From: Patescibacteria group bacterium | Lineage (GTDB): Bacteria > Patescibacteriota > Minisyncoccia > Minisyncoccales > GWA2-38-27 | DNA length: 64,000 nucleotides | NCBI GenBank assembly: GCA_020148045.1 | Contig: JAHCRG010000006.1 | Span: 137,909 to 201,908 of the forward strand | Direction of reading: 5' to 3' | Shown here: piece by piece, positions 457-40,035 of the stretch | How positions within the stretch are numbered: position 1 is the first letter of the stretch | Layout: every line of letters begins with the position of its first letter | Notes under the pieces: generated by a model | The model's database searches: none | What the model saw: the letters and a program-made list of their open reading frames with translations, nothing else | Told to the model about the DNA's origin: nothing | Made by a program: the position numbers and the translations under genes

Positions 457-471
457 AAAAGCCTTTCTATA

Positions 472-500
472 CTGCCCGAGGCCCGTCCTCGGGCAGTTTT
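472..500 (+). terminator. Intrinsic terminator, copy 1 of a triplicated GC-rich hairpin
   Basis: ctgcccgagg-cccg-tcctcgggcag followed by tttt. Identical hairpins occur at 4210 and 5541. Confidence 0.8.
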
Positions 501-521
501 GGTATAAAAGGGGTGTGAGGG

Positions 522-550
522 TTGACAAAATTCTTAGGTTGTGATAAATT
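522..550 (+). promoter_or_regulatory. Sigma70-type promoter of the csgEFG-curlin operon
   Basis: TTGACA (522-527), 17-nt spacer ending in TGa, then TAAATT (545-550). Paralogous promoters lie at 4279 and 5585. Confidence 0.6.
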
Positions 551-575
551 ATAGAATATTTAATCCGAGGTATTT

Positions 576-622
576 AATCCGAGAGGATTGATTTTTATCT
601 TGGCGGTTCGTTTAAAACTTAA
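576..622 (+). promoter_or_regulatory. Conserved 5' leader element (small GNRA hairpin plus U-run), copy 1
   Basis: A 47-nt block, aatccgagaggattgatttttatcttggcggttcgtttaaaacttaa, is repeated exactly at 4343-4389. It contains AAUCC-GAGA-GGAUU followed by GAUUUUUAU. Confidence 0.55.
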
Positions 623-722
623 TTGGATAGAAAGTTAAAGAAAGGAGATGACAGTGAGAAGATAGAAAAAAAGGTAATTGTTGTTTAGAAAGCAATGTAT
701 AAACAAAGAAAGGAGAAAACGA

Positions 723-1508
723 ATGAAAAGATTTTGGATGATTTTGGTATTGATGTTGGCCCTGGGTTTAGTTTTTACTTTGGCTGTTCAAGCAAAGCAG
801 GAAAAAACAGAGGAGGTAAAAAAAGAGCCGGCAGAAACAGCATGTACAGCATGTGTTGTTGATGCCAGAAAATGTCGTGGTTTCAACAACGTAATGTATG
901 GTGTAGTTTCTTTTAGAGAGGTTTGGAATAGTTCTAAATTTACTCTTCAAAAAGTATGTGTCGTAAAAGGTGACAAACCCAGCGTTTGGAGTTTTGAGGG
1001 TCGTGTAGCGGTTGTTTCTGAGATTACAACAACACAGCAAAAAGAGGCGAAGCAGCAAAAAGAGGTGAAACCCGAGAAAACTTCTGCAGCAGAAGAAAAA
1101 TTAAGCAGGTCAATTGGAAAAATTGAAGAAGCAGAAAGAGCAGCAACAAAAAGAGAAATAGCAGCAGAAGAAGAACTGATGGAAGAAATAACCGGGTTAA
1201 TTATTGAGCAGACCATGACCAAGATTGGTTATGAGTTCTACGAAAACTTCTTCATTCGTTGGGAAGCGCCAAAAGGGATTAAGGGCTACAACATCTTTAT
1301 TGACGAGAGAGCCAGTCCTCTATGGGGAAGCTGGATTCAGATTAAGGTTGATACAACCATGGTTTGGAGCAAAGTGCTTAAACCAAGGTCTGAAGAGATT
1401 GAGGAAGCAGCCAAACAAGCTGTTGAAGTAACCAAGGGATTTCTCTCTCGCTATGAAGAGTACAAAAGAGAGCTTGAAGGACCAGACATGGTAGGCAGCG
1501 GTATTTAG
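723..1508 (+). CDS. csgE: CsgE-like curli secretion specificity factor with an approx 130-aa N-terminal extension
   Basis: The C-terminal GLIIEQTMTKIGYEFYENFFIRWEA...IDERASPLWGSWIQIKVD aligns by eye with E. coli CsgE (GLLTDHTVSSIGHDFYRAF...INERPSARWGSWITITVN). There is a signal peptide from the ATG at 723, and an RBS aaaggag lies 7 nt upstream. Confidence 0.8.
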   Translation: MKRFWMILVLMLALGLVFTLAVQAKQEKTEEVKKEPAETACTACVVDARKCRGFNNVMYGVVSFREVWNSSKFTLQKVCVVKGDKPSVWSFEGRVAVVSEITTTQQKEAKQQKEVKPEKTSAAEEKLSRSIGKIEEAERAATKREIAAEEELMEEITGLIIEQTMTKIGYEFYENFFIRWEAPKGIKGYNIFIDERASPLWGSWIQIKVDTTMVWSKVLKPRSEEIEEAAKQAVEVTKGFLSRYEEYKRELEGPDMVGSGI

Positions 1509-1579
1509 GAGGGATTGTTAAGGAACGTGTAAGGTATTTGAAGAAAGTGTAAATTTAATCCAAAGAAAGGGGAAAGAAA

Positions 1580-2014
1580 ATGAAACGATTAGTGATGTAT
1601 GTTATTTGCGGCATTGTTTGCGTTTTGTTTTTAATGCCGGCAACTGAAGCCACAGCCACAGAATTGGTGTTTGAGTTCATAAACCCGTCTTTCGGCGGTT
1701 CGCCGTTTAATGGACCGTGGATGTTAGCTCAAGCAGAGGCCCAGAACAAGCTCGTAGAGAAGCAAAAGCCGTTTACAATGCCAAAGAGAGACCCGATACA
1801 GGACTTTGAAGATAGTCTGAATCGGCAGATACTCTACCAGATGTCAAGAAAGATAGTGAGTTCAGCATTTGGCGAGGAAGGCCTTGAGCCCGGTCAGTAC
1901 AGCGTAGGCGATTACACAATTGATGTGACGGTTGATGTCATCAGTGGCATAAAAGTTACTATAACTGACACCGTAACTGGAAACTCAACCACTGTAAAAG
2001 TACCCTATTATTAA
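1580..2014 (+). CDS. csgF: CsgF curli assembly/channel-capping protein
   Basis: Signal peptide followed by ELVFEFINPSFGGSPFNGPWMLAQAEAQN, compared with E. coli [27 protein letters not shown]. The C-terminal DYTIDVT...VTITDTVTGNSTTVKV matches DYIVDIA...LNVTDRKTGQTSTIQV. Confidence 0.88.
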   Translation: MKRLVMYVICGIVCVLFLMPATEATATELVFEFINPSFGGSPFNGPWMLAQAEAQNKLVEKQKPFTMPKRDPIQDFEDSLNRQILYQMSRKIVSSAFGEEGLEPGQYSVGDYTIDVTVDVISGIKVTITDTVTGNSTTVKVPYY

Positions 2015-2029
2015 GAGAGGAGGTAAGAA

Positions 2030-2950
2030 ATGAGAAGAATACTGAATATTGTGATTATGGCAGCCATGCTAATGGCACTTGTTCTTCTGTCTGGCTGCGC
2101 TACTACGATGGCTTCTATGTATACCGAGCGGGCAACTATGGCATTTACTACTGCTATTCATCAGGATTTGATTTCTCTGCCTCCGCCGGAAGAAAAAATT
2201 GTGGTAGCAGTTTATAAGTTTAGGGACCAGAGCGGACAGTACAAGCCTCATCCTGCCGCAGTCAGTTTTTCAACAGCTGTTACTCAAGGAGCTACTTCAA
2301 TGCTGAATAAAGCTCTTGAAGATTCTGGCTGGTTTATCCCTATAGAAAGGGAAGGATTGCCTAACTTGTTGAACGAGAGGAAAATCATTCGTTCAACAAT
2401 GATGCAGTATCAAGCCCAAAACAGTGAAGGCGAGAATTTACCGCCTTTACCACCTTTGCTCTATGCAGGTGTACTTTTAGAGGGAGGCATAATTGCCTAT
2501 GAAACCAATTTAGTTACCGGTGGTTTCGGACTCAGATACTTTGGCTTAGGCGGTTCTACCGAGGCAAGGAAAGACCAGGTAACCATTTATTTGAGGGCTG
2601 TAGCTGTCAAGAATGGCAAGATTCTTAAATCTGTCTCAACCACCAAATCCATTCTTTCCAGAGAAGTGAATTTCGGTGTTTACAGATTTGTCAGAGTCAA
2701 GAGGTTGTTGGAGGCAGAAACCGGTTTATCCACTAATGAGCCTCCGTCAATGTGCGTCCTGGAAGCAATAGAGAAAGCTGTCTACGACCTGGTTGTAGAA
2801 GGCATTCAGGACGGCCTCTGGAATTTGAGAAATCCAGAGGACATCAACTCTCCGCTTATTCAGAAGTATTTAAAAGAAAAAGAAGCGACAGAGAAGATAG
2901 TTACCTTTGACGAAGAAGGTAACTTGGTAGCAGTTAAGGACGTTGAATGA
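2030..2950 (+). CDS. csgG: CsgG curli secretion channel lipoprotein
   Basis: Lipobox LLSGC. Full-length similarity to E. coli CsgG (VAVYKFRDQSGQYKP, STAVTQGATSML, WFIPIEREGLPNLLNERKIIR, SILSREVNFGVYRF, TNEPPSMCVLEAIEKAV). Confidence 0.92.
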   Translation: MRRILNIVIMAAMLMALVLLSGCATTMASMYTERATMAFTTAIHQDLISLPPPEEKIVVAVYKFRDQSGQYKPHPAAVSFSTAVTQGATSMLNKALEDSGWFIPIEREGLPNLLNERKIIRSTMMQYQAQNSEGENLPPLPPLLYAGVLLEGGIIAYETNLVTGGFGLRYFGLGGSTEARKDQVTIYLRAVAVKNGKILKSVSTTKSILSREVNFGVYRFVRVKRLLEAETGLSTNEPPSMCVLEAIEKAVYDLVVEGIQDGLWNLRNPEDINSPLIQKYLKEKEATEKIVTFDEEGNLVAVKDVE

Positions 2951-3053
2951 TTTCTATCCAGTATAGGCATAGACAGAGATGAAAGAAAGAGAGGTAATTT
3001 ATGAACAGAAGGATTTTAATAGTAACAATGGCTTTGGTAATTCTTCTTGGTTT
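2918..3053 (+). repeat. 136-bp duplicated block, copy 1 (csgG 3' end, intergenic region, RBS and curlin signal peptide)
   Basis: Matches 4392-4527 with a single mismatch by direct comparison. Confidence 0.9.
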
Positions 3054-3978
3054 ATCCGGCTTGGCTCTTGCTGATGGTAATACCAGCACTGTCGATCAGA
3101 CCGGCAACGACAACAGAGCTAGGGTTAGCCAAGATGGCAGTGGTAATGAAGCCACTATCACCCAGGAAGGCGATGACAACGTTGCTTCTCAGAGTCAGAC
3201 CGGCGACGAGGACATTGCCATTATCACCCAGACAGGCAATGGGAACACAGCTTACCAGTCCCAGACCGGCAGCACTAACAACCAAGCCACTATTGTGCAA
3301 AACACCAGTGGCACTGGGAATATTGCTAGCCAAACCCAGAACGGCAGTTGGAATATTGCCTTGATTCAGCAAATTGAAAGTAGTACTCTCAATACTGCTG
3401 CTCAGGTCCAGACGGGTATTGGGAACGATGCCTCGATTGAGCAGAGTGGGTCCGCAGCTGGGAACACGGCTAACCAAACCCAGATTGGAACCGGCGTCGC
3501 CTGGAACATAGCTAAGATACGGCAGAGGGGAAAAGACTCCATCGCCAGGCAATACCAGGACGGCCGTGGCAACGATGCCTATATTGGCCAGTTTTCATCT
3601 TACAACTATGCTGCACAGAACCAGACAGGTGAGTACAATGGGGCCAAGATTATGCAGTTTGCCGCACACAACATTGCTTACCAAACCCAAGTTGGTATCT
3701 CCAATATTGCTGAGATTGAGCAGCGGGGAGTTGGAAACTATGCTCGACAAAACCAGACAGGTGATGACAATGAGGCCAAAATTTCCCAGAACCCGTACCC
3801 TAGTGATGGTGGCGGCAACGTAGCTTACCAAACTCAGAACGGTAACGGCAACTATGCTGAAGCTACGCAGGTTGGTTGGAACAATTGGAGTTCTCAGACC
3901 CAGACCGGTGACTTCGATTCGAGCATTGTTACTCAGATAGGGGATGGTAATGTAGCTACGGTTGTCCAAACTCCGTAA
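3001..3978 (+). CDS. csgA: Curlin-repeat amyloid subunit (CsgA/CsgB-like), 325 aa with approx 25 strand motifs
   Basis: Signal peptide (..GLALA), then iterated Q-x-G-x-x-N-x-A-x-x-x-Q units, for example VSQDGSGNEATITQEGDDNVASQSQTGDEDIAIITQTGNGNTAYQSQ. Confidence 0.88.
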   Translation: MNRRILIVTMALVILLGLSGLALADGNTSTVDQTGNDNRARVSQDGSGNEATITQEGDDNVASQSQTGDEDIAIITQTGNGNTAYQSQTGSTNNQATIVQNTSGTGNIASQTQNGSWNIALIQQIESSTLNTAAQVQTGIGNDASIEQSGSAAGNTANQTQIGTGVAWNIAKIRQRGKDSIARQYQDGRGNDAYIGQFSSYNYAAQNQTGEYNGAKIMQFAAHNIAYQTQVGISNIAEIEQRGVGNYARQNQTGDDNEAKISQNPYPSDGGGNVAYQTQNGNGNYAEATQVGWNNWSSQTQTGDFDSSIVTQIGDGNVATVVQTP

Positions 3979-4053
3979 GTTAAGTCAATGTTTTAACCCG
4001 GAGCAATAGTGCTCCATAGAATTTTCATCTTGTCTATATTTGGAAGAAATAAA

Positions 4054-4083
4054 CCCCCACTACCAATTTCATTGGTGTGAGGG
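4054..4083 (+). terminator. Imperfect hairpin of the CCCCCAC(T/A)ACCAA...TTGGTGTGAGGG family, 3' of curlin gene 1
   Basis: cccccactaccaa-atttca-ttggtgtgaggg. A second, better terminator (gggcgagga...tcttcgccc plus T-run) follows at about 4133-4170. Confidence 0.45.
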
Positions 4084-4209
4084 TAAACCTATTACTACCA
4101 GAAATTTTTTTGAAGTTTTGGTGTGAGGGTGAAGGGCGAGGATTAAAAAAATCTTCGCCCTGTTTTTATTTTTTATTTCCATTTCCGATTTTTTTTACAT
4201 TTCTATTTT

Positions 4210-4236
4210 GCCCGAGGCCCGTCCTCGGGCAGTTTT
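4210..4236 (+). terminator. Intrinsic terminator, copy 2 of the triplicated hairpin
   Basis: tgcccgaggcccgtcctcgggca plus tttt. Confidence 0.8.
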
Positions 4237-4278
4237 GGTGTAGGGGTTGACCCCCACTTTTGTTAGTTTGAATGGAGG

Positions 4279-4307
4279 TTGACAATCTTCTTTGGTTATG
4301 ATAATTT
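4279..4307 (+). promoter_or_regulatory. Sigma70-type promoter of curlin gene 2
   Basis: TTGACA (4279-4284), 17 nt ending in TGa, then TAATTT (4302-4307). Confidence 0.6.
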
Positions 4308-4342
4308 ACAAGATATCTAAAAATCAATTCGTTAAAGGAAAA

Positions 4343-4389
4343 AATCCGAGAGGATTGATTTTTATCTTGGCGGTTCGTTTAAAACTTAA
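4343..4389 (+). promoter_or_regulatory. Conserved 5' leader element, copy 2
   Basis: Exact 47-nt repeat of 576-622. Confidence 0.55.
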
Positions 4390-4391
4390 AA

Positions 4392-4424
4392 GGTAACTTG
4401 GTAGCAGTTAAGGACGTTGAATGA
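4392..4424 (+). pseudogene. 33-nt relic of the csgG 3' end (GNLVAVKDVE-stop) carried by the duplication
   Basis: Identical to csgG 2918-2950, but no csgG body lies upstream of it. Confidence 0.8.
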
Positions 4425-4474
4425 TTTCTATCCAGTATAGACATAGACAGAGATGAAAGAAAGAGAGGTAATTT

Positions 4475-5380
4475 ATGAACAGAAGGATTTTAATAGTAAC
4501 AATGGCTTTGGTAATTCTTCTTGGTTTGTCTGGATTAGCTTTTGCCGATGGGAATGTGAGCACGGTCAATCAGACCGGCGCTGGCAATAGTGCTACGGTT
4601 AGCCAAGCTGGTATTAACAACGATGCTGAGATTACTCAAAATGGCAATGGGAACGTTTCTTCTCAGAGCCAAGCCGGCCCTGTTGGTAATAACGAAGCTA
4701 AGATTCTCCAGGTTGGTAACACGAATATTGCTTCCCAAGACCAGAGGATCGGCAACAACCTGGCCGAGATTAAGCAGACCAGTACAGGTAGCAACCTTGC
4801 TTCTCAAATCCAGTGGGGCCAATGGAATATTGCCCTGATTGAGCAAATTGAAGGGAGCAACGGCAATAGGGCTTACCAAGTCCAGCTCAGTAAAGGCCAC
4901 AATGCTTATATTAAGCAGGACGAGAACGCAACTGGCAACTATGCTTCTCAAACCCAGTCTGGTGGTCCTGGGATGGGCGGCGAGAACACCGCTGGGATAT
5001 GGCAGAGCGGAGACTCCGCCACTGCCATTCAGAACCAGACTGGTAATGTGAATGGTGCCTACATTAGGCAGAGAGGCGTTGCCAGCCGGGCTTACCAAAC
5101 CCAATATGGTATCTCCAACGCCGCCTTTATTGTCCAGTTCTCATCTGGAAACTATGCTGCACAAGACCAGACAGGTGAGGGCAATGAAGCCAGGATTCGG
5201 CAGTTTGGCGGTGACGGCAACGTAGCTTACCAAACCCAGAACGGTAACGACAACGATGCTTTCGCTACGCAGGTTGGTTCTAGTAATTTCAGTTCTCAGA
5301 CCCAGAACGGCACCAGCGATTTCAGTGTTGTCCAGCAGATAGGAAACGGTAATGTGTCTACGGTTGTCCAAAGCAACTAA
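4475..5380 (+). CDS. Second curlin-repeat amyloid subunit (CsgA/CsgB-like), 301 aa
   Basis: The first 17 residues match the 3001 gene exactly, the next 8 differ at 2 positions, and the repeats then diverge (VSQAGINNDAEITQNGNGNVSSQSQ...). The C-terminal IGNGNVSTVVQ is paralogous to IGDGNVATVVQ. Confidence 0.88.
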   Translation: MNRRILIVTMALVILLGLSGLAFADGNVSTVNQTGAGNSATVSQAGINNDAEITQNGNGNVSSQSQAGPVGNNEAKILQVGNTNIASQDQRIGNNLAEIKQTSTGSNLASQIQWGQWNIALIEQIEGSNGNRAYQVQLSKGHNAYIKQDENATGNYASQTQSGGPGMGGENTAGIWQSGDSATAIQNQTGNVNGAYIRQRGVASRAYQTQYGISNAAFIVQFSSGNYAAQDQTGEGNEARIRQFGGDGNVAYQTQNGNDNDAFATQVGSSNFSSQTQNGTSDFSVVQQIGNGNVSTVVQSN

Positions 5381-5540
5381 GTCAATGTTTTAACCCGGGG
5401 CAATAGTGCTCCATAGAATTTCATCTTGTTTATGTTTGGAAGAAATAAACCCCCACTACCAATTTCATTGGTGTGAGGGTGAAGGGCGAGGATTAAAAAA
5501 TCTTCGCCCTGTTTTTTTCGATTTTTTTACATTTCTATTT

Positions 5541-5568
5541 TGCCCGAGGCCCGTCCTCGGGCAGTTTT
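5541..5568 (+). terminator. Intrinsic terminator, copy 3 of the triplicated hairpin
   Basis: tgcccgaggcccgtcctcgggca plus tttt. Confidence 0.8.
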
Positions 5569-5584
5569 GGTATAAAAGGAAGGT

Positions 5585-5613
5585 TTGACAATCTTCTTTG
5601 GCTGTGATAATTT
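5585..5613 (+). promoter_or_regulatory. Sigma70-type promoter of the beta-barrel protein gene
   Basis: TTGACA (5585-5590), 17 nt ending in TGa, then TAATTT (5608-5613). Nearly identical to the promoter at 4279. Confidence 0.6.
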
Positions 5614-5852
5614 ACAGGATAGTTTGAAACCAATTCTTTGAAGGAAAGAATTAGGAGAATTGGTTTTTAACGGTTCTTTGAAAATTTAAGAAAGGAGGTG
5701 ATGGAAATGGAAAGAAAAATGCCAAGAGAGCCACCCGGAGAATAGATTAAGCCAGAAAATGAAGTATTTGTTTTGGCAGTCAATTGTATTTTGTAGGAAA
5801 TTTTATTGAAAAGAAACTGTTTTTTCACAATTAAATTCAGAAAGGAATTGTT

Positions 5853-6671
5853 ATGGAAAAGAGATTGTTACTGTTAGTTGTGGTGCTTGTGGTGGTTGGT
5901 TTGGGGAGTTCTCCTGCTTTTGCCTTAGACCCGATGGGGCCTCCAACAGGGAACCTGAGACAGGGGCAGTCTCAAGCAGGGATTGATTACTCCTACAGCA
6001 CAATGGACCTTAAATTAACCAACGGTAAATGGACTGAGTATAAAAATGGAAGGTTTTACGACTCAGGAGAAGCGTTTTCCTTGACCCTCAAGAATTTCAA
6101 GATGAATAAGGTATATGCCAACTTTGGATATGGCATCTTTGACAACTGGGACCTATTTTTGCGTTTAGGCGGAGCAGACGCCAAATTTGGTGACTCAATC
6201 TGGGAAGAAGGAGAAAAATTTGATGGCCCGGCTAGTTTTACAATTGGCTTTGGTACCAAAGCAACCTTTTATCAAGAGGGTCCTCTCAAATTGGGCGGAC
6301 TGTTTCAAGCAAGTTGGGCTGATTTGGATGGGCATCTAAAAGCAAAGGACTGGGCTGACTCTGTTGATATTGAGCTTACTGAGATGCAAATCGCTATAGG
6401 CCCAAGCTATGAGCTGGCAGACGGTGTTTCTATTTACGGCGGCCCCTTTTTCCATTTCGTTAATGGCGATTTAGATGATAATTTTAGTGAGACGTGGAAC
6501 GGAGATGTCTTGAGTTCGAAATACTCCTGGGATATTGGTGAGGCCTCTACTTTCGGTTATTATATTGGTTTTCAGGGAGTGAACCTCACCGAAAACATTT
6601 TTCTCAACATCGAGTACCAGCGTACAGCATCAGCTGATGCTCTTGGTCTGAAGCTCATCTGGAGATTTTAG
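5853..6671 (+). CDS. Outer-membrane beta-barrel-type protein (OMP_b-brl / porin-like), 272 aa
   Basis: Signal peptide ending in PAFA. Alternating amphipathic strands rich in G, Y and aromatic residues. The C-terminal LKLIWRF ends in Phe, a typical BAM beta-signal. Confidence 0.6.
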   Translation: MEKRLLLLVVVLVVVGLGSSPAFALDPMGPPTGNLRQGQSQAGIDYSYSTMDLKLTNGKWTEYKNGRFYDSGEAFSLTLKNFKMNKVYANFGYGIFDNWDLFLRLGGADAKFGDSIWEEGEKFDGPASFTIGFGTKATFYQEGPLKLGGLFQASWADLDGHLKAKDWADSVDIELTEMQIAIGPSYELADGVSIYGGPFFHFVNGDLDDNFSETWNGDVLSSKYSWDIGEASTFGYYIGFQGVNLTENIFLNIEYQRTASADALGLKLIWRF

Positions 6672-6681
6672 TCAAAACTAA

Positions 6682-6720
6682 GCCGAGGAGGTAGCTATCT
6701 TTACCCCTCGGCATTTTTTA
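6682..6720. terminator. Hairpin terminator between convergent genes, at the compositional boundary
   Basis: gccgagg...cctcggc followed by atttttta. Confidence 0.65.
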
Positions 6721-6736
6721 TGAAGCCCGACTTCAC

Positions 6737-8467
6737 TTAATTCATCTCTATTTTGTAAACTTCTGAGTTGTTGAGAAGATGGATTGTTTTGTTGTCTGAG
6801 GAGATATCAAGATCTTTGAGATTATCAAATTTTTGGCTTTGGAATTGCTTGATGATTTTGCCTTTTTTATCAATAATAACAACTCTGTTTTTTACTGGTT
6901 CTAAAAGATAAAGATAGGGGATATCTGCTTTGGTTTTGATTTGAGTAATATTTTCTGGAAATGGGAAGAAATCAGGGATTATAGTTTCTTGAAAAGAACC
7001 AGCATAGTAGCGAAGGACTGAATTATCTTCGTTCAAAATCCAAACTGAACCGTCAACTGTCATTGATTTTGGCTCAGAGCAAGGGCCTTTATCTTTCGTC
7101 CATTTTTTAGGAGAGCCCCAATTTAGAGCCCCTAAGAGAGAATATTTAATAATCTCGCAAGTTTTTTTGTCTAAGAAGTAAAGATTGGAAAGGTAAGAAG
7201 CGGATAAATCAAAATTAAATTCAAATGAAGGTGGGTCAACAAGAGAGCTGGAAGGAGAAGAGAACAAGCTTGAATCCGGTTCATTTACAAGTTCGGGATT
7301 TTCAATCTTTTCTAATTTGTTTAAATTTTCCAAGTTTTCTTCAATTGATTGTTTTAAATCAATTATATCAGAAGTTTTTGTTTCGGTTAAAGGTAAAATT
7401 TCTTTCCAGGCCTCTTTAAAAAGAGAATTGGCTTCTTCTTCGTTTTTAAAAATTAAAAAGCTTTCTGCCTGATTAACTTTTTCTTGTATCTTAGCTAAAG
7501 AGGTTCTAATTTCTTTTTCTTTTCTTCCCACTGCTTGTTTAAAAATTAAAAATCCCAGGAGGAGAACAGAAGCTAAGACAAGAATCAGAATTAGCTTTTT
7601 CTTAATGTTTGTCTTGGGACGAAGTTTTTCTATTATAGGGCCTGGTGTAGGTATTTTTATTTTTGGCAATTTTATCTTTGGCAAATTTGGCTTTTTGATA
7701 ATCTTCGGAAGTTTAAAGGGAAATCTAATTTTTGGAAAGGAGAATTTCTTTTCGCTTTGAAAAAGAATCGCTTTGCCTCTTTTTGTTGGTTCTGTTTTTA
7801 CAACAGAGAGGAGGCAAGTCCCAGAAACTTTTGAGCCCTCGCCTTTAGTAAAAAGAGAAGAGGGTAAAATTTCTTTTATTTTTTTTCCATTAATATTTTC
7901 GCTTTGAGCGATTTTAGTCAATAGATTTTGCTGAAGGAAAAATTCAAAAATCTCCTTGGTCAAAACCAAGATTTTATCATCTTGAGTTAATTTGCCTGAA
8001 ACAACATTAAGAAAAATTTTCAAAGGATAGGGTTCAATTTCCCGGAGGTCTAAGTTTTTACCAATATCAATTATTTGTCCGGCTCTTAACAGCAAAATTT
8101 TAATATCGCCGGTTTTAGTAAAAATTAAATTAAAATCTTTTAAAGAAAAAACAGCAAAGTTTAAGTTTCCCAGCCAGCTGACATTTTCCTTTTTTACTTT
8201 TTCAGCTAAATATTCATTTGTTTTTTTTAAACTTTGCGAAAGAGCTTTTTCAGGAAATTTTTGGGAAAAAGTATAATAGCTTTTCTTGATAGCTTTAGCA
8301 ATATCATCTAAAAGTTTTAGATTTTGGGGCAGAACGTTCCGAAGTTCTCCAACAACGTATAAATTTCCTAGGTTCTTCTCGTAGATATTTTCCGGTTCAT
8401 AAATAAAACTGTCAAAGATTTGGTCTTCTTTTAGTTTAGGGTTAAAATGTAGTTCAAATACTTGCAT
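6737..8467 (-). CDS. Hypothetical membrane protein: N-terminal weak PP2C/SpoIIE-like region, central TM, C-terminal beta-rich domain
   Basis: Long ORF. I prefer the start at MQVFELHF (8467), because the longer ORF start at 8509 lies only 5 nt from tRNA-Val (8514). TM segment LILILVLASVLLLGFLIF. The functional assignment is weak. Confidence 0.6.
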   Translation of the reverse strand: MQVFELHFNPKLKEDQIFDSFIYEPENIYEKNLGNLYVVGELRNVLPQNLKLLDDIAKAIKKSYYTFSQKFPEKALSQSLKKTNEYLAEKVKKENVSWLGNLNFAVFSLKDFNLIFTKTGDIKILLLRAGQIIDIGKNLDLREIEPYPLKIFLNVVSGKLTQDDKILVLTKEIFEFFLQQNLLTKIAQSENINGKKIKEILPSSLFTKGEGSKVSGTCLLSVVKTEPTKRGKAILFQSEKKFSFPKIRFPFKLPKIIKKPNLPKIKLPKIKIPTPGPIIEKLRPKTNIKKKLILILVLASVLLLGFLIFKQAVGRKEKEIRTSLAKIQEKVNQAESFLIFKNEEEANSLFKEAWKEILPLTETKTSDIIDLKQSIEENLENLNKLEKIENPELVNEPDSSLFSSPSSSLVDPPSFEFNFDLSASYLSNLYFLDKKTCEIIKYSLLGALNWGSPKKWTKDKGPCSEPKSMTVDGSVWILNEDNSVLRYYAGSFQETIIPDFFPFPENITQIKTKADIPYLYLLEPVKNRVVIIDKKGKIIKQFQSQKFDNLKDLDISSDNKTIHLLNNSEVYKIEMN

Positions 8468-8513
8468 GATAGTTCTATTTATTATAATATATATAAAAAT
8501 GGTGAGCAATCTT

Positions 8514-8586
<73 letters not shown>

Positions 8587-8699
8587 CAATGGCATCATTA
8601 GAGTAGCTTTTTGGTTCTTTCACCAAGTTTCACCAGAGTTTACTCTCTGCACAATGATGTCAGCAAGCCCTCACACCAAAATTAGTAGTGTGACGGGCA

Positions 8700-8748
8700 A
8701 GGGAGAGTTTGGCGTTCCCTCTCCGGCCAATACTCTCCCTCTTTTTTT
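8700..8748 (+). terminator. Terminator closing the tRNA-Val transcription unit
   Basis: agggagag (8700-8707) pairs with ctctccct (8734-8741), followed by a T7 run. Confidence 0.55.
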
Positions 8749-8767
8749 AAAACAAAAGCCCAGCTTC

Positions 8768-9442
8768 TCATTGCTGAGCTTTTATTTCATCTATACCCCT
8801 TTTGTAATAGTCCTCCAAACTCTTCCAGCCCCAATAAATCATTAGTATCAGACCTAAATCAATCAAGAAAATGGAAAGATTAATTAAAGGAAATCCTTGG
8901 TATTTTTCAATACTTAAGGAAAATAGCCAAACCAGAATTACAGTAAAACCGCAGCCAGTTTTCCTTCGCCCCCATTTATTGGGAGAAAGATCAATTTTTA
9001 TCCCTTTAATGTAATAGTAGAAAGCTCCAATACATCCAGCAATAAAAATTGCTCCAACTATTGAAAGCATCAAAATTCCCAAAGCAGTGGTAAGGCCGTT
9101 AGTATAGAAGGGTAGGTTCGTTAACTTCCAACGATTGTGCCAGATTAAAACCATCAATGCTGGATAAATAAAAACATGGTCTGCTAGTATGTCTAAAATA
9201 GAACCAAACACACTTTTACCGTAACGTCGTGCGATCGGCCCATCAATACAATCGGTGAAAGTAGCGAGCCCGCCCAAAATATCTATTAACCAGAGTCGGT
9301 CGGGATTATTAATGGCTGTAAGCAAAAACCAAACAGCCATTACCAATCTACTTAAAGTAATACTGTTGGCTAGGTTTTGTTGCAGCCAAGTTGGTATCAA
9401 ACGAATCTTTTCTCTTATATATTCAGAGATTTTTCTGTTCAT
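8768..9442 (-). CDS. CDP-alcohol phosphatidyltransferase family protein
   Basis: Motif DCIDGPIARRYGKSVFGSILDILADH, which is DG(x)2AR(x)8G(x)3D(x)3D. Multiple TM segments. Confidence 0.85.
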   Translation of the reverse strand: MNRKISEYIREKIRLIPTWLQQNLANSITLSRLVMAVWFLLTAINNPDRLWLIDILGGLATFTDCIDGPIARRYGKSVFGSILDILADHVFIYPALMVLIWHNRWKLTNLPFYTNGLTTALGILMLSIVGAIFIAGCIGAFYYYIKGIKIDLSPNKWGRRKTGCGFTVILVWLFSLSIEKYQGFPLINLSIFLIDLGLILMIYWGWKSLEDYYKRGIDEIKAQQ

Positions 9443-9513
9443 TTCATTCTCCTTTCATTTTTCAGTTGAGAAGGAACATTTTTGTTTTTTGTTGGATGTA
9501 GTATAATATAATA

Positions 9514-9894
9514 ATGAGTATTTTTTTGCAAGGATTAATTTGGCAGTTTTTTGATGTGCCAAAAGCAATTTTAAAGGGCTGGAAAAATTTTCTTTTGTTT
9601 AATTTAAATTATTTTTCAGTTCCTATTCTTTTGAAAACCTTTTTTTCTCATTGGCGCAGATATCATTATCCTTATGGAAAAGTATTTGAGGCATGGAAAA
9701 ACATTGAGACATTTGTTTTTAATATGATGTCCAGAATTATTGGGGCTCTTTTAAGAACCATTTTTATAATTTTGGGACTATTCATAGAAGCTTTAATAAT
9801 TTTAGGAGGAACGATAGTATTTTTTGGCTGGCTTTTATTGCCAGTTTTATTATTGGCAGGATTATTATTCGGCTTAAAGCTCGTTTTTTACTAA
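9514..9894 (+). CDS. Small polytopic membrane protein, function unknown
   Basis: 126-aa ORF with three hydrophobic segments. TATAAT (9502-9507) lies 6 nt upstream of the ATG. Confidence 0.6.
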   Translation: MSIFLQGLIWQFFDVPKAILKGWKNFLLFNLNYFSVPILLKTFFSHWRRYHYPYGKVFEAWKNIETFVFNMMSRIIGALLRTIFIILGLFIEALIILGGTIVFFGWLLLPVLLLAGLLFGLKLVFY

Positions 9895-9910
9895 TTTTGT
9901 TTCATGACCT

Positions 9911-12412
9911 ATGTTCAACTTTAATCTTAAAAAAGCAAAGATATATCAAGCGGTGAAATGGGAAAAGTTTTCGTTTTTTAGATTTGCTAAAATTTTAAAG
10001 ATATTGTTTTTTGTTTTGTTTGTTTTAGTGTTTTTAGCATTTCTTTATGGATTTGTGCCGGAGAATTTCTCGCCAGAGACCAACAGGACTCTATTAGGTC
10101 TTTCAATAATTTTTCTTGTTTCAACTCTGAGTTCTTGGATTAAAGAAAGCTTTTTTAATTTAAAATTAAAAAAGCCAGAGCTTAAAGCTAATATTAGTGA
10201 AGCATTATTAGATCCGGAGAGCTATAACCTGGCTGAGTTTTTAAGCTTTGAAGCAGCTAAGGCGGTTAGTAAGTCCAAATTAAGCTCAACTCGTCTTTTT
10301 TATTTTATTTTAATTGATAACCCGAAATTAGATTTTATTTTCTTACGCGCCCTTTTGGATTCCAACGAGATTAAAAAAATATTAAAGAAAGAGTTAAAGG
10401 CCAAAGAATCCGATAATTTTCAAAGAACTATTCTTGAGGCCTTGGGAATAGCCCAGAAAAAAAATCATACCAGAATTGAAATAGGGGATGTCCTATCTGC
10501 TCTTGCCAAGCATAACCTGATTTTTAAAAGGATTTTAGTTAAACATAAACTCAAAGCCGAGGATATTGAAAATTTAACCTGGTGGTTGGAAAATATTAAA
10601 GAAAAAATCAAAAAAAGGAAAAGGTTCTGGGAATATGAAAATTTAGCTAAAAGAGGAACATTGGCTAAAGAATGGACAGCTGGTTATACGATAGCTTTAG
10701 ATAGATATTCCAAAGATTTAACTGATTCAATTAGGAAGAAGGATTTAGAATTTGTTGGCCATAAAGAAGAAATGAAGAGGATAGAAAGAATTTTAGCTAG
10801 AAGAGAAATTAATAATGTTTTAATAATTGGGGAACCAGGCACAGGAAAAAGAAGCATGGTTTATGCTTTAACCCAGATGAGTTTATTAGGCAGAAGTTTG
10901 CCTGGGGTGAGTTACAAGAGGGTGGTTGAATTAGATGTGCCGGCTTTACTGGCTCAACTTGAAAGTATGGAAGATGTTGAAGCTACTTTAGATAAAATTT
11001 TCCAGGAAGTAGTTTTGGCTGGCAATATTATTTTGGTGATTGATGGATTCCACAACTATATTGGCCAAGTTTCCAGGCCAGGAATAATTGATATTTCAGG
11101 AGTTATCGCACCCTATTTACGTTTTCCCCAATTTCAAATTGTAGCAATTACAACTTACGAAGGTCTTCACAGATATATTGAAAAAAATCCTTCTATCTTA
11201 TCTCTTTTTGGGAAAGTAGAGGTTTCAGGAATCTCCCAAAGGGAGACGCTTGTGCTTTTGGGGTATTTAACCTTTGCTCTTGAGAAAAGATACAAAATCT
11301 TTATTTCTTATCCTGCTATGCGAGAGATAATTTCTTTGACTGACCGTTATTTCCCTTCCCTTCATTTTCCCGAGAAAGCCATAGACATTTTAGATGAAGT
11401 AGCAGTTTATGTTGCGGGCTCAACAAGAGAAAAAGTAGTTTTGCCAAAGCATATAGCTAAGATTATTACCGAAAAGACCGAGATTCCGGTGGGAGAGATA
11501 GAGGCGAAAGAAAGAGAGGTTTTACTCAATTTAGAAAATTTAATTCATCAAAGAATTATTAATCAGGACGAAGCAGTAAAAGAAGTTTCAACTGCCCTTC
11601 GGAGAGCCAGGTCAGAAGTTACAGTAAGAAAAGGTTCAATGGGTTGCTTTTTGTTTTTAGGACCTACCGGGGTTGGTAAAACCGAAACCTCAAAAGCCCT
11701 GGCAGAGTATTATTTTGGTTCAGAAAAGAAGATGATAAGATTAGATATGTCAGAGTTTCAAGATATAAAAGACATCCCTAGATTGATTGGTTCTGCAACT
11801 GAGACAGGGCTTTTAACAACTCCGGTTCGGGAAAATCCCTTTTCTTTAATTCTTTTGGATGAAATTGAAAAAGCTAATCACAATATTTTGAATTTATTTT
11901 TACAGGTTCTTGATGAAGGTCATTTAACAGATGGTTTTGGAAGAAAGGTTGATTTTAAAAATTCAATAATTATTGCCACCAGTAATGCTGGTTATAAGGT
12001 GATTTTGGAAGCTTTAAAAAGAAAAACCGAATGGGCAGGAGTAAAACAAAAACTTTTAGATTATCTTTTTGAGAAAAGAATATTTAGACCAGAATTTATC
12101 AATCGTTTTGATGCAGTTGTCGTTTTCAGGCCCTTAACCAAAGAAAACCTTTTAGATATTGCTCAGCTGATGTTATCAAAATTAAAAAAGAATCTTCAAA
12201 AAAAAGGCATTGAATTTATAATTACAGAACCCCTCAAAGAAAAAGTAGTTGAATTAGGCTATAGCCCGGTTTTCGGGGCAAGGGCAATGAGAAGGGTTAT
12301 TCAGGATAAAGTAGAAAATGTTTTAGCTTCTGCCTTGCTTTCCGGCCAACTAAAAAGAGGGGATAGAGTAGAACTTGACCCAAAGAAATTTAAACTGATT
12401 ATTAATCCTTAA
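9911..12412 (+). CDS. Membrane-anchored ClpB/ClpC-like double AAA+ ATPase with a degenerate D1 module
   Basis: N-terminal TM segments, then Clp R-type repeats. D1 has GEPGTGKRS and ILVIDGFHN. D2 has the canonical GPTGVGKTE and LILLDEIEKA. The ClpB D2-small domain is present. Confidence 0.85.
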   Translation: MFNFNLKKAKIYQAVKWEKFSFFRFAKILKILFFVLFVLVFLAFLYGFVPENFSPETNRTLLGLSIIFLVSTLSSWIKESFFNLKLKKPELKANISEALLDPESYNLAEFLSFEAAKAVSKSKLSSTRLFYFILIDNPKLDFIFLRALLDSNEIKKILKKELKAKESDNFQRTILEALGIAQKKNHTRIEIGDVLSALAKHNLIFKRILVKHKLKAEDIENLTWWLENIKEKIKKRKRFWEYENLAKRGTLAKEWTAGYTIALDRYSKDLTDSIRKKDLEFVGHKEEMKRIERILARREINNVLIIGEPGTGKRSMVYALTQMSLLGRSLPGVSYKRVVELDVPALLAQLESMEDVEATLDKIFQEVVLAGNIILVIDGFHNYIGQVSRPGIIDISGVIAPYLRFPQFQIVAITTYEGLHRYIEKNPSILSLFGKVEVSGISQRETLVLLGYLTFALEKRYKIFISYPAMREIISLTDRYFPSLHFPEKAIDILDEVAVYVAGSTREKVVLPKHIAKIITEKTEIPVGEIEAKEREVLLNLENLIHQRIINQDEAVKEVSTALRRARSEVTVRKGSMGCFLFLGPTGVGKTETSKALAEYYFGSEKKMIRLDMSEFQDIKDIPRLIGSATETGLLTTPVRENPFSLILLDEIEKANHNILNLFLQVLDEGHLTDGFGRKVDFKNSIIIATSNAGYKVILEALKRKTEWAGVKQKLLDYLFEKRIFRPEFINRFDAVVVFRPLTKENLLDIAQLMLSKLKKNLQKKGIEFIITEPLKEKVVELGYSPVFGARAMRRVIQDKVENVLASALLSGQLKRGDRVELDPKKFKLIINP

Positions 12413-12435
12413 TAATAAAAACAAGAAATAAAACA

Positions 12436-12466
12436 GGCCGGGTGGTCTTTGACCACTCGGCCTTTT
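12436..12466. terminator. Bidirectional intrinsic terminator
   Basis: ggccgggtggtc-ttt-gaccactcggcc plus tttt, between convergent genes. Confidence 0.8.
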
Positions 12467-12471
12467 GCTTT

Positions 12472-13311
12472 TTAAAATTCTATAGCTATTGCCGTAGCTT
12501 CTGGGTAGTCTTCGTGGGTTAAGGATTTCTTATCATCTGCAATTTGGCGGGTAGCTTCTAGGATAGCATACAGCCCACCCTTTTTATAAAGCCGGATTAT
12601 TTCTCCTGCCATTCCTAATTCATTTTTTGTCCATTCAAACGGAATGAGACCGTCAGAGAAAAGAAGCAAAAACCCTATTCCCGCCCGCGGAAGTGTAAAT
12701 TTCTGCCAAAAATGTTCAAATTCAGGCTGACCATTAAGAAGAGCAAATCCTCCTTGCTTAGTGTTGATATTGGCTCGTCGCTTTTCTGTAAGAATGGGGC
12801 GGAATTCCTCCCACATTTTCTGCCTATCTCCTTTATGTTTTTTCATAAGCTCTGCGATAATGAGAAGAAGTTCCTCCTCGTAACTATATGTTTTGTTAGG
12901 GGTTGCTCCAAGGGTTCCGTCTTTTGTTTGCCATATTGCTAGAGCATCTCCTCCTTGAAGAATGTGGATATTCGTAGTGTTTACAGATGCTACAACAAAA
13001 GCAGCAGAAGGAAGCAATTCTGATTCCTTTAGAGATAAACCACTTGCCTCAATATCCTGGCGAATCAAGCTATTTGCTCTCCGAACAATGCCTTCCAAAG
13101 AAGATGTTGCTGGAGAGGCATTTCTAAAAGCATAAGAAATAATATGTGATGCAAGTTGACCACCTGTCATTCCGTGAAAAAGTGTTGGACCTTCGTCAGG
13201 AAGATAAATTCCGGTTATGCCATCAGTTACAGCATAGTAATAAGGGGGCTGGAAAATAATCCCATCTTCAGGGATACGCGCACTACCTTGATCATACAAA
13301 ACCTTTATCAT
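12472..13311 (-). CDS. Hypothetical protein, possible PPM/PP2C-like phosphatase fold
   Basis: 279-aa ORF with an RBS aaaggag. Weak motifs AVTDGITG and LLLFSDGL resemble PP2C metal-binding segments. Confidence 0.6.
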   Translation of the reverse strand: MIKVLYDQGSARIPEDGIIFQPPYYYAVTDGITGIYLPDEGPTLFHGMTGGQLASHIISYAFRNASPATSSLEGIVRRANSLIRQDIEASGLSLKESELLPSAAFVVASVNTTNIHILQGGDALAIWQTKDGTLGATPNKTYSYEEELLLIIAELMKKHKGDRQKMWEEFRPILTEKRRANINTKQGGFALLNGQPEFEHFWQKFTLPRAGIGFLLLFSDGLIPFEWTKNELGMAGEIIRLYKKGGLYAILEATRQIADDKKSLTHEDYPEATAIAIEF

Positions 13312-13417
13312 TGGTTACTCCTTTCTTTCATTTTTTGATTTTCAAATAACATTGGTTATGACAACAGCGCCATAACACTTGAATTGTATCATAGTATATC
13401 AAATCTGTCAAGATTTT

Positions 13418-13534
13418 GTGGGTGTGAAAAAAATGTGGAAAAGTATGGGTTGACGGGGGTATATGAAGTGGGGTATAAAGAAAGCAGAGTGTATAATTGT
13501 GGAAAACTATGGGAAAACCCCTAGTTTTTGTGGA
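13418..13534 (+). promoter_or_regulatory. mraZ promoter region with phased GTGG(G/A)/ATGGG boxes (candidate MraZ operators)
   Basis: Boxes at 13418, 13435, 13445, 13468, 13499, 13509 and 13530. Two pairs are spaced exactly 10 bp apart. TTGACG (13450) and TGTATAAT (13490-13497) are promoter candidates. Confidence 0.5.
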
Positions 13535-13539
13535 AAACT

Positions 13540-13971
13540 ATGTTTATTGGAGAATATTGTCATATTATAGATACTAAAAAACGTTTATCTCTTCCAGCTA
13601 AATTTCGAAGAGAGCTCGGTAAAAAAGTAACAGTGACTAGGGGTTTTGAGAATTGTTTGGCTATTTATCCAGAAAAAGAATGGAAGATAGTAACAGATAA
13701 GTTAGAAAAATTGCCAACAAGTCAAATTGGAGTCAGAAGTTTTAGCAGAGTTATTCTTGCTGGTGCCATGGAGGTTAGCTTAGATAAGCTAGGAAGAATT
13801 CTTATTCCAGATTATTTAAAAAAATACGCTGGTTTAAAAAAGAATGTTATAATCTGCGGACTCTCTAACAAGTTAGAAGTTTGGGATGTTCAGAAATGGG
13901 AAATATACCGGAAGAGAGCTGAAAAGGATATTGAGAAGGTTGGAGAGCAATTACCAGAGTTGGGAATTTAA
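13540..13971 (+). CDS. mraZ: Transcriptional regulator MraZ
   Basis: MFIGEYCHIIDTKKRLSLPAKFR and a second SpoVT-AbrB repeat (GRILIPDYL). Located at the head of the dcw cluster. Confidence 0.9.
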   Translation: MFIGEYCHIIDTKKRLSLPAKFRRELGKKVTVTRGFENCLAIYPEKEWKIVTDKLEKLPTSQIGVRSFSRVILAGAMEVSLDKLGRILIPDYLKKYAGLKKNVIICGLSNKLEVWDVQKWEIYRKRAEKDIEKVGEQLPELGI

Positions 13972-13979
13972 ATTAAAAA

Positions 13980-14822
13980 ATGCACATACCTGTTCTTCAA
14001 AAAGAAGTTTTACAATATTTAGATCCAAAGCCAAATGAAAATTTTATTGATGCAACGATTGATGGCGGGGGACATACTATTACTATCCTCGGGAAAATTA
14101 AGCCAAATGGGAAAGTATTGGGGATTGAAATTGACCCAGAAATTTATCAGAAATTGGAGTCAAAGAATTTAGACAGATTAGTTTTAACAAATGATTCTTA
14201 TGTAAATTTAAAAAGCATCCTTGAGAAAAGTAATTTCAGACCGGTTAATGGAATATTATTTGACCTTGGAATGTCAAGCTGGCACTTGGAAGAATCGGGC
14301 AGGGGATTTACATTTTTAAAAGATGAGCCACTTGATATGAGATATAGTTTAGAGAATAATTTAACTGCTGAAAAAATTATAAATAATTATTCTCAAGAAG
14401 AGATTGAAAAAATATTGAAAGAATACGGAGAAGAGAGATTTGCCAGAAGAATTGCTAAAAGAATTATAAAAGAAAGGCCCATTAAGACAACTCTTCAACT
14501 GGTAGAGATTATTAAAAGAGTAGTCCCGGGGAGAACAAAGATTAACCCAGCCACCCGAACATTTCAGGCATTAAGGATTGCTGTTAATGATGAGCTAAAT
14601 AACTTAAGGAAAGTTTTACCCCAAACAATAGAAGTTTTAGCGCCAGGGGGAAAGATTGTCATAATTTCCTTTCATTCTTTAGAAGATAGAATTGTCAAGA
14701 ATTTTTTCAAAAGTTCAAATTTAAATATCTTAACAAAAAAACCAGTAAGACCTTCAAAAGAAGAAATTAAAATTAACCCCCGCTCGCGTAGCGCGAAGCT
14801 CCGAGCAGCGGTAAAACAATAA
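13980..14822 (+). CDS. rsmH: 16S rRNA (cytosine1402-N4)-methyltransferase RsmH
   Basis: HIPVL, DATIDGGGHT, FDLGMSSWHLEE..RGFTF, ISFHSLEDR. Confidence 0.92.
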   Translation: MHIPVLQKEVLQYLDPKPNENFIDATIDGGGHTITILGKIKPNGKVLGIEIDPEIYQKLESKNLDRLVLTNDSYVNLKSILEKSNFRPVNGILFDLGMSSWHLEESGRGFTFLKDEPLDMRYSLENNLTAEKIINNYSQEEIEKILKEYGEERFARRIAKRIIKERPIKTTLQLVEIIKRVVPGRTKINPATRTFQALRIAVNDELNNLRKVLPQTIEVLAPGGKIVIISFHSLEDRIVKNFFKSSNLNILTKKPVRPSKEEIKINPRSRSAKLRAAVKQ

Positions 14823-37645: not shown

Positions 37646-37649
37646 AATT

Positions 37650-38387: not shown

Positions 38388-38389
38388 AA

Positions 38390-40003: not shown

Positions 40004-40035
40004 ACAGCTCTTTTGATAATTCTTGTCCCTCTAAA

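Follow-up and report, generated by a model that had tools for sequence, protein, structure and literature searches.

The DNA analyzed here, a stretch of 64,000 nucleotides from contig JAHCRG010000006.1 of a Patescibacteria group bacterium (assembly GCA_020148045.1; called the window below), contains a six-gene curli locus at positions 678–6671 of its + strand. The genes encode the secretion proteins CsgE, CsgF and CsgG, two curlins, and an outer-membrane-type beta-barrel protein. We interpret the locus as a working curli island that was acquired horizontally, the most likely donor being a Planctomycetota-like diderm, by a Parcubacteria-type bacterium of the candidate phyla radiation (CPR) that inhabits anoxic marine subsurface sediment, and put the probability of this interpretation at roughly 0.75. 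Curli biogenesis is a textbook case of outer-membrane-dependent secretion. Current models of envelope evolution regard Patescibacteria as monoderm.

All six open reading frames (ORFs) were verified. The curli genes lie within 6 kb on one strand, every protein has a signal peptide at its N-terminus when read from the translations, and the same cluster occurs in four further contigs (L017, L018, L019 and L025). The coding features of the island are as follows.

723–1508, + strand: csgE, 261 amino acids (aa), with a signal peptide, a four-Cys N-domain, a K/E-rich linker and a C-terminal CsgE domain (Pfam, PDB 2na4, alignment).
840–1034, + strand: extra N-terminal domain of CsgE, conserved in the window, L017 and L018.
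1580–2014, + strand: csgF, 144 aa, with a signal peptide and an N-terminal CsgG-plug motif (Pfam, PDB 6l7a, clade alignment).
2030–2950, + strand: csgG, 306 aa, with an LSGC lipobox, a constriction loop and two transmembrane (TM) hairpins (Pfam, E. coli CsgG structures).
3001–3978, + strand: curlin 1, 325 aa, with a Sec signal peptide and 13 curlin repeats, a predicted beta-solenoid (Pfam, AlphaFold2).
4475–5380, + strand: curlin 2, 301 aa, about 12 repeats, tandem paralogue of curlin 1 (Pfam; duplication including the upstream region).
5853–6671, + strand: outer-membrane-type beta-barrel protein, 272 aa, with a signal peptide and about 12 long strands (AlphaFold2, Foldseek).

Family membership was judged by comparing Pfam scores with the gathering cut-off (GA) of each family. 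CsgG scores 220 bits against PF03783 (GA 20.8), CsgF 145 bits against PF10614 (GA 25.8), and CsgE 89 bits against PF10627 (GA 25), with the match confined to residues 171–271 of the 276-aa ORF that opens at 678. Curlins 1 and 2 score 91 and 73 bits against Curlin_rpt PF07012 (GA 20.7). The scores of these members are 3–10 times the cut-offs, and chance similarity is ruled out because the E-values of the assignments range from 1e-20 to 1e-65. A preliminary description, made from the sequence and its translated ORFs alone, had proposed a complete co-directional curli locus with CsgF and CsgG homologues carrying the cap motif, the LSGC lipobox and full-length CsgG blocks, and had called the C-terminal half of 723–1508 CsgE-like. 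The scores, the alignments to E. coli structures, and the restriction of the CsgE match to the C-terminal 100 or so residues bear this out. It had also named two outcomes that would count against it, namely profile scores below the family thresholds and placement of the contig in a lineage where curli are routine; the scores lie far above GA and the contig belongs to Patescibacteria.

The NCBIfam equivalog models built on E. coli also match the window proteins, all under their strict cut-offs, as expected of distant orthologues. CsgG, with 263 bits against a cut-off of 505, is by this measure an orthologue-level relative and not the enterobacterial equivalog. It aligns over its full length to the solved E. 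coli protein (PDB 3x2r/4uv3; 248 bits), an alignment that takes in lipobox, constriction loop and the two TM hairpins. Within it, the segments YETNLVTGGFGLRYFGLGG and SREVNFGVYRFVRVKRLLEAETG are the hairpins matched to TM1 and TM2 of E. coli, the constriction loop reads KPHPAAVSFSTAV where E. coli has KPYPAS-NFSTAV, and the LSG-C lipobox is kept across the clade. CsgF retains the N-terminal plug motif FEFINPSFGGSPFNG when aligned to E. coli CsgF (PDB 6l7a), and its motif FINPSFGGSPFNG aligns to the E. coli plug segment. Individual constriction residues nevertheless differ from those of E. coli: CsgG Y51 is H and N55 is S, and CsgF N17 is F.

The C-domain of CsgE matches PDB 2na4 with E = 7e-9. 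Translation starts at ATG 723, with AAGGAG at 710–715 upstream, and the NCBI product is likewise 261 aa long. The extra N-domain of about 65 residues carries four cysteines in the pattern C.VDARKC...VSFR.VWN...TLQKVCVVKGD.PSVWSF. It is well conserved in the window, L017 and L018 and is absent from the CsgE of L019, of the planctomycete discussed below, and of E. coli. No Pfam family corresponds to it, and an exhaustive search of 1.8 billion representatives returned only 30 matches, mostly C-terminal. Elsewhere the domain is found mostly at the C-terminus of small, N-terminally anchored membrane proteins with disordered linkers.

The AlphaFold2 model of curlin 1 (predicted local distance difference test, pLDDT, 82) is a regular solenoid of 26 strands, that is, 13 repeats; the 12 or so repeats of curlin 2 are estimated from its length. 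The two proteins share 60 % of their amino acids, with conserved termini and a diverged middle, and curlin 2 is a tandem duplicate of curlin 1 that includes the upstream region. It is 70 % identical to the curlin of L024, a relative from Guaymas Basin sediment. The NCBIfam CsgB model outscores the CsgA model for both curlins (130 against 77 bits for curlin 1), with every score under the equivalog cut-offs. CsgA and CsgB can be told apart in Gammaproteobacteria only (Dueholm 2012, PMC3521004). CsgA homologues have 4–62 repeats, and their distribution shows secondary maxima around 15 and around 22 (Sleutel et al. 2023, PMC10192328); within that range our curlins are mid-sized; the preliminary description overstated the matter in calling them giant. 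The spacers of about 500 bp that lie 3′ of each curlin gene are duplicated too (4077–4250 and 5406–5588; 78–98 % identity), and both hold a tandem pair of terminator-like hairpins along with a short ORF that looks spurious.

The limits of the island can be read from related genomes. On L017, a 32.7-kb contig from an unrelated run (DRR433233) with 84 % identity in CsgG, csgE-csgF-csgG-curlin is followed by a homologue of the host gene p590 and then by CDP-alcohol phosphatidyltransferase, ClpB, MraZ, MraW and a penicillin-binding protein. On L018 (ERZ27247117; CsgG 91 %) the same four genes follow an upstream host gene with a Pur_ac_phosph_N domain. L008, a more distant relative, has both flanking host genes, convergent and 95 bp apart, with nothing between them. 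Thirteen CPR relatives have sequence reaching at least 1.9 kb past p590, and none of them carries a curli gene. These comparisons delimit the island to about 457–6736 and confine it to a small subclade. Its setting is as follows.

1–456, + strand: 3′ end of the host gene left of the island, not part of it (Pfam; host-like GC content at third codon positions, GC3, of 0.26; homologues adjoin csgE in L018 and p590 in the L008 empty site).
457–6736, no strand assigned: horizontally acquired curli island between two convergent host genes (composition, L008 empty site, junctions in L017 and L018).
6682–6719, + strand: hairpin GCCGAGG...CCTCGGC with a T-run, 3′ of the barrel gene at the right island edge (read from the sequence).
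6737–8509, − strand: p590, host gene right of the island, 590 aa, no Pfam family, not part of the island (relatives all metagenome-assembled genomes (MAGs) of Patescibacteria; GC3 0.27).

No integrase or transposase ORF was found in the island, and no flanking direct repeats beyond the internal cassette described below; the nearest tRNA gene (Val, 8514–8587) lies beyond p590. In a second Parcubacteria-type genome, L019, nifU and mnmA enclose a related island (CsgG 76 %), and the named relatives of its MnmA are all Parcubacteria or Staskawiczbacteria. With islands at different loci in two CPR genomes, curli islands therefore occupy at least two chromosomal sites in CPR. The left host gene (L001:7273–8427) encodes a surface protein of 384 aa that has a Pur_ac_phosph_N domain (FN3-like), a poly-Glu run (about 45 residues) and, at its C-terminus, a TM anchor. 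Its evolution is fast: aa identity to the L018 homologue is 56 %, versus 90 % for CsgG.

Composition and homology both point outside CPR for the source of the island. Its genes have a GC content of 0.40–0.51 and a GC3 of 0.36–0.52, against a host GC of about 0.35 and a host GC3 of about 0.27 (0.24–0.36 in 20 host genes of the window), and L017 and L019 show the same contrast. The closest taxon-labelled CsgG, at 74 %, belongs to Planctomycetes bacterium RBG_16_55_9, whose contig (MHYK01000314; L025) carries a sulfatase gene and a collinear csgE-csgF-csgG-curlin and whose CsgG shares the C-terminal extension. The curli genes of RBG_16_55_9 have a GC3 of 0.58–0.65; the CPR island falls between planctomycete and host values, consistent with partial amelioration. 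A neighbor-joining tree of the top 120 CsgG matches, with too few taxon labels and no support values, resolves the donor no further than to an environmental clade that contains a Planctomycetes MAG. Taken together, the sequence comparisons show a locus acquired by horizontal gene transfer (HGT), with a Planctomycetota-like diderm as the most likely donor. The preliminary description had missed the foreign composition, the horizontal origin and the defined insertion site.

The NCBI label and the restriction of p590 relatives to MAGs of Patescibacteria (15/15 loci in GTDB genomes) identify the host as a Parcubacteria-type CPR bacterium. Carriers of p590 include Parcubacteria DG_74_1, Ca. Paceibacter normanii, Ca. 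Nealsonbacteria, UBA6532 and others, and a p126-ClpB-MraZ synteny is common to them. These relatives, the label and the monoderm-type surface proteins of the window confirm the earlier assignment to CPR/Patescibacteria. Exact copies of CsgG, CsgE and the barrel protein are deposited at NCBI as MBZ9577843, MBZ9577841 and MBZ9577846 [Patescibacteria group bacterium]. The source scaffold at ENA is ZHAO22-1_SAMN13740702 scaffold_16, and the sample is subseafloor sediment from the Costa Rica Margin (IODP U1379B, 2–9 m below the seafloor, sulfate-reduction zone). Planctomycetes are among the major phyla in Costa Rica Margin sediment (PMC9723726). We found no paper on curli in CPR, and papers naming both CsgG and Planctomycetes contain incidental mentions only. 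The preliminary description needs correction in one respect: the exact CsgG is already on deposit. That record, MBZ9577843.1, is the only prior trace of the system and carries the automatic label 'curlin [Patescibacteria group bacterium]'.

Selection was assessed from the ratio of nonsynonymous to synonymous substitution rates (dN/dS). Between the window and L017, csgE, csgF and csgG together give a dN/dS of 0.245 (0.19–0.32, 95 % confidence interval, as for the other ranges in brackets) at a dS of 0.42 (0.34–0.51); the values are 0.24 and 0.30 for the window and L018, and 0.21 and 0.47 for L017 and L018. Single genes give 0.2–0.4 for csgE and 0.19–0.27 for csgG. The barrel gene, compared with its homologues in L023 and L024, gives 0.33–0.42 at a dS of 0.24 and 0.22, respectively. 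The CPR clade shows hardly any variation in the TM hairpins and lipobox Cys of CsgG or in the plug of CsgF. Because of these ratios and this near-invariance, the machinery is shown to have been under purifying selection while resident in CPR genomes: csgEFG and the barrel gene are constrained inside the clade, and more weakly so than core genes. The flanking host genes have a dN/dS of 0.114 and a dS of 1.16 (1.02–1.35) between the window and L017. The dS of the island (678–2950) is about one third of that of the flank (6737–14822), although the island occupies the same site in both genomes. This suggests that the island spread among already diverged CPR relatives by recombination through the flanks; a different synonymous rate would be the alternative.

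The barrel protein scores 23.2 bits against PF13505 OMP_b-brl, below the GA of 28.7, and many of its homologues carry a precomputed match to that family. Its AlphaFold2 model (pLDDT 85; predicted TM-score, pTM, 0.78) is all-beta with about 12 long strands, and the top 50 Foldseek matches in the PDB are all outer-membrane barrels, including Pla/OmpT, NalP and FapF, at TM-scores of 0.42–0.47. The protein thus combines a signal peptide with a modeled closed antiparallel beta-barrel fold, and the barrel named in the preliminary description stands on the model and the Foldseek matches, its Pfam score being sub-GA. All taxon-labelled homologues (50–60 % identity) are from Planctomycetota, including Phycisphaerales and Sedimentisphaerales. 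Two relatives from Guaymas Basin sediment link the gene to curli: L024 reads csgG-curlin-480-aa TPR-like protein-barrel, and L023 has two curlins, abiEi/abiEii, the TPR-like protein and the barrel. Because it is curli-linked in L023 and L024 and is not adjacent to curli in L022 and L021, the barrel is a clade-specific accessory of curli. We rejected it as a universal curli partner, since it has no curli neighbor in the planctomycetotal L022 or in L021. We also rejected it as a detached equivalent of the C-terminal extensions or PF13505 domains that are fused to many close CsgG homologues, as BLASTP finds no similarity at E < 1e-3.

The secreted protein of about 480 aa encoded 5′ of the barrel gene (L024:1255–2697, L023:3091–4542, L021:3863–5236) has weak TPR matches and an N-terminal region rich in Pro, Ser and Arg. 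The window lacks this protein and has curlin 2 in the corresponding place. In L023 an AbiEi/AbiEii toxin-antitoxin (abortive infection) pair with a host-like GC3 of 0.24–0.32 lies at 1568–2901, between the curlins and the TPR-barrel pair.

A regulatory cassette occurs three times in the island, 5′ of csgE, of curlin 2 and of the barrel gene. It consists of a terminator hairpin (GCCCGAGGCCCGTCCTCGGGC plus a T-run), a promoter-like box (TTGACA-17-TAAATT/TAATTT with an upstream TG) and a conserved leader, of which 47 nt are exactly repeated. Its elements and the associated terminators are as follows.

471–497, + strand: terminator-like hairpin GCCCGAGG-CCCG-TCCTCGGGC with a T-run, cassette copy 1.
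522–550, + strand: promoter-like TTGACA-17-TAAATT with TG upstream, copy 1 of 3, 5′ of csgE (sigma-70-type match, 10/12).
576–622, + strand: leader segment of 47 nt with a small hairpin, exactly repeated at 4343–4389.
4133–4232, + strand: two tandem terminator-like hairpins 3′ of curlin 1 (4133–4161, 4208–4232).
4279–4389, + strand: cassette copy 2, 5′ of curlin 2, with the TTGACA...TGATAAT box at 4279–4307 and the 47-nt leader at 4343–4389.
5483–5613, + strand: tandem terminators (5483–5510, 5540–5564) and cassette copy 3 (TTGACA box 5585–5613), 5′ of the barrel gene.

The 26-nt promoter box is found three times in the 64-kb window, at the cassette sites only, where none is expected, and it is also present 5′ of csgE in L018. 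In a consensus scan, copy 1 is the best sigma-70-type site of the region; the scan recovers the terminators as well. From this arrangement we infer three putatively co-regulated transcription units: csgEFG with curlin 1, curlin 2, and the barrel gene. A known riboswitch or small RNA in the leader was considered and rejected, as the leader has no Rfam match even at E ≤ 1. Its hairpin is thermodynamically unremarkable in two of the three copies (z-scores −0.4, −1.1 and −3.3).

In the mechanism that we propose, all components would be exported by Sec. CsgG would be lipidated and form the usual nonameric pore, CsgF would act as the plug and nucleation adaptor, and CsgE would cap the pore for substrates on the periplasmic side. 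Both curlins, with their 12–13 repeats, would polymerize outside the cell into beta-solenoid amyloid fibers. Such fibers might serve adhesion, aggregation or attachment to a host cell, which is plausible for an attached, ultra-small sediment cell. The CsgG pore and the barrel could be located in an unrecognized outer layer or in the outer membrane of a partner cell; CsgG could play a non-canonical, lipid-anchored role; or the genes could be useless cargo, an option that is disfavored because of the selection data.

Several points weigh against a working, planctomycete-derived system. The canonical mechanism would be without its membrane: no Bam, Lol, Lpt, Lpx or Tol genes occur in the 74 kb read, and for Patescibacteria, which are proposed to have no outer membrane, machinery for its biogenesis is not known either (PMC12102498). 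L017 does without the barrel gene, which is therefore not essential to the system. The donor assignment is weakened by its dependence on few taxon-labelled matches and an unsupported tree. Finally, selection on the island (dN/dS of about 0.24) is weaker than on its flanks (0.11), and the comparison of curlin 2 with the L024 curlin gives a dN/dS of about 1.0 at a dS of 0.19. The last two values are what one might expect if the locus were functionless cargo, recently transferred, unusable without an outer membrane, tolerated and decaying. The lack of recognizable outer-membrane machinery in the available host sequence fits this as well, as does the variable content of the island (one or two curlins, with or without the barrel and the TPR gene), and there is a precedent in the rare diderm-type type IV secretion system (T4SS) parts of Patescibacteria, whose functionality is unknown (PMC12102498). 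We nevertheless consider cargo of this kind unlikely. All six ORFs are intact here, and at least four more contigs have an intact csgEFG; the csgEFG dN/dS has an upper 95 % bound of at most 0.33, far below 1; and the hairpins, lipobox Cys and plug are nearly invariant. The lineage-specific CsgE domain and the triplicated promoter cassette are signs of adaptation after transfer, and CPR genomes are strongly streamlined.

The function could instead be fully canonical if this CPR clade had an outer membrane or an equivalent lipid layer and were a diderm exception within Patescibacteria. A CsgG pore and a barrel of about 12 strands, both under purifying selection and behind the same promoter cassette, would suit such an envelope, and so would the secreted TPR protein that relatives encode beside the barrel. 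Against this stand the 74 kb without outer-membrane genes, the Gram-positive-type WxL and LysM cell-wall-binding proteins of the same genome, the view of Patescibacteria in the literature, and the fact that the curli genes are recent imports and not ancestral; we regard a diderm exception as very unlikely. An artifact is barely credible. If a diderm (for example planctomycete) curli locus had been misjoined to a CPR contig by chimeric assembly or bin contamination, the island would have GC and GC3 values clearly above those of its flanks, as it does, and its repeated cassettes and duplicated genes could confuse assemblers. The locus is, however, internal to a 165-kb ENA scaffold and a 207-kb NCBI contig. 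The right junction recurs in L017 and the left junction in L018, both from other runs, and L008 provides the matching empty site. The island genes of L017 and L018 are 9–16 % different in amino acids and hence do not come from the same reads. We rejected a chimeric assembly on the strength of these independent contigs, which repeat both junctions, and of the empty site.

The locus differs from the well-known curli system of E. coli and Salmonella (csgBAC plus csgDEFG; type VIII secretion) in several ways, while sharing with it CsgE, CsgF, CsgG, curlin repeats, Sec signal peptides and the CsgF plug. The genes here are unidirectional, whereas those of the enterobacteria form divergent operons, and csgC, csgD and a distinguishable csgB are absent. 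The curlins have 12–13 repeats instead of five and no N22-type leader segment. CsgE has the extra Cys-containing N-domain, CsgG has a C-terminal extension, a gene for an outer-membrane barrel is attached, and the host is thought to be monoderm. The layout had been put forward as unusual. It is indeed collinear and without csgC and csgD, but this is normal outside Enterobacterales (PMC3521004) and is shared with the Planctomycetes MAG. Variable operon layouts, the absence of csgC and csgD outside some Gammaproteobacteria, and multiple csgA/B paralogues have been described (PMC3521004, PMC10192328), and the layouts and repeat numbers reported by Dueholm 2012 and Sleutel 2023 cover those seen here. 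Because RBG_16_55_9 has the same layout, the collinear arrangement and the lack of csgC and csgD were inherited from an environmental type of curli. The RBG_16_55_9 locus is also like ours in its CsgG subfamily with the C-terminal extension and in its long multi-repeat curlin. It differs in its high-GC diderm host (the neighboring sulfatase has a GC3 of 0.75), in a CsgE without the four-Cys N-domain, and in having neither an adjacent barrel gene in the available sequence nor the triplicated promoter cassette.

In the survey by Dueholm et al. 2012 (PMC3521004), curli were reported from Proteobacteria and Bacteroidetes and from a single strain each of Firmicutes and Thermodesulfobacteria, and HGT was considered minor; here, in contrast, the host belongs to Patescibacteria and the locus is clearly an HGT island. 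Rare VirB9/VirB10-like T4SS parts in Patescibacteria have been attributed to independent transfers (Quinonero-Coronel et al. 2025, PMC12102498). They resemble our case in that they are genes of outer-membrane-associated machinery, rare in CPR and ascribed to transfer. The curli island, unlike them, is a complete multi-gene system at one site in several related genomes and under measurable purifying selection. By all the sequence and structure criteria applied here, the system is a member of the curli/type VIII family, closest to environmental planctomycete-type loci, and not a new kind. Its novelty lies in the CPR host, in an HGT island for which an empty site is at hand, in the domain fused to CsgE, and in the barrel gene attached to the locus (with the TPR gene in relatives).

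The rest of the window encodes a minimal dcw cluster, glycolysis genes, DnaB, CysS and FtsZ, and no rRNA gene. The surface proteins encoded there belong to the monoderm type and comprise WxL, WxLIP_PGBD+LysM and cohesin/Big proteins as well as a fusion of type IV pilin and LamG. A Gram-positive-style surface cluster at 36491–44133 comprises WxLIP_PGBD+LysM (36491–37687), a 537-aa protein of unknown function, WxL (40036–40647), an Ig-like protein and cohesin+Big_13 (42601–44133). WxL complexes are typical of Firmicutes cell walls, and their occurrence in a CPR genome is notable. The pilin (60163–60990) joins an N_methyl motif to a Laminin_G_3/concanavalin-like lectin domain and is a candidate adhesive pilin. 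FtsZ (44315–46057) is 580 aa long; its tubulin domain begins only at residue 102, behind an extension of about 100 residues, and is followed by a long tail at the C-terminus. The sole Mur ligase of the dcw cluster (16814–17860; 348 aa) matches only the distal Mur_ligase_M and C domains and may be N-terminally truncated or highly divergent. At L001:3416–5256 on the same scaffold, 2.7–4.6 kb upstream of window position 1, adjacent genes of 377 and 212 aa match Peptidase_M73, followed by genes of 170 and 516 aa. Peptidase_M73 is the camelysin/TasA family, to which the Bacillus biofilm fiber protein belongs, and a second fiber locus, of monoderm type, may lie beside the curli island.

The combination of this host with these genes leaves three options: the envelope model of the clade has to be revised, the CsgG pore has a new mode of use, or a streamlined CPR bacterium keeps a six-gene system that it cannot use. 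It is tempting to speculate, although we lean against it, that a Parcubacteria lineage actively uses a planctomycete-derived CsgG-CsgF pore and barrel without a conventional outer membrane, either in an evolved or borrowed lipid layer or as an episymbiont that inserts them into the outer membrane of its (perhaps planctomycete) host. If partner-membrane insertion were true, curli fibers and pore would belong to the interface of attachment and exchange. In either case no type VIII secretion system would have been seen at work in a CPR or monoderm-type envelope before, and the lineage of the donor would point to the otherwise unknown host of this CPR clade. The gene set is small and directly testable in E. 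coli and in vitro. It provides a candidate adhesion or aggregation structure for uncultured subsurface CPR bacteria and, through the likely descent of its genes from planctomycetes, suggests who a physical partner might be.

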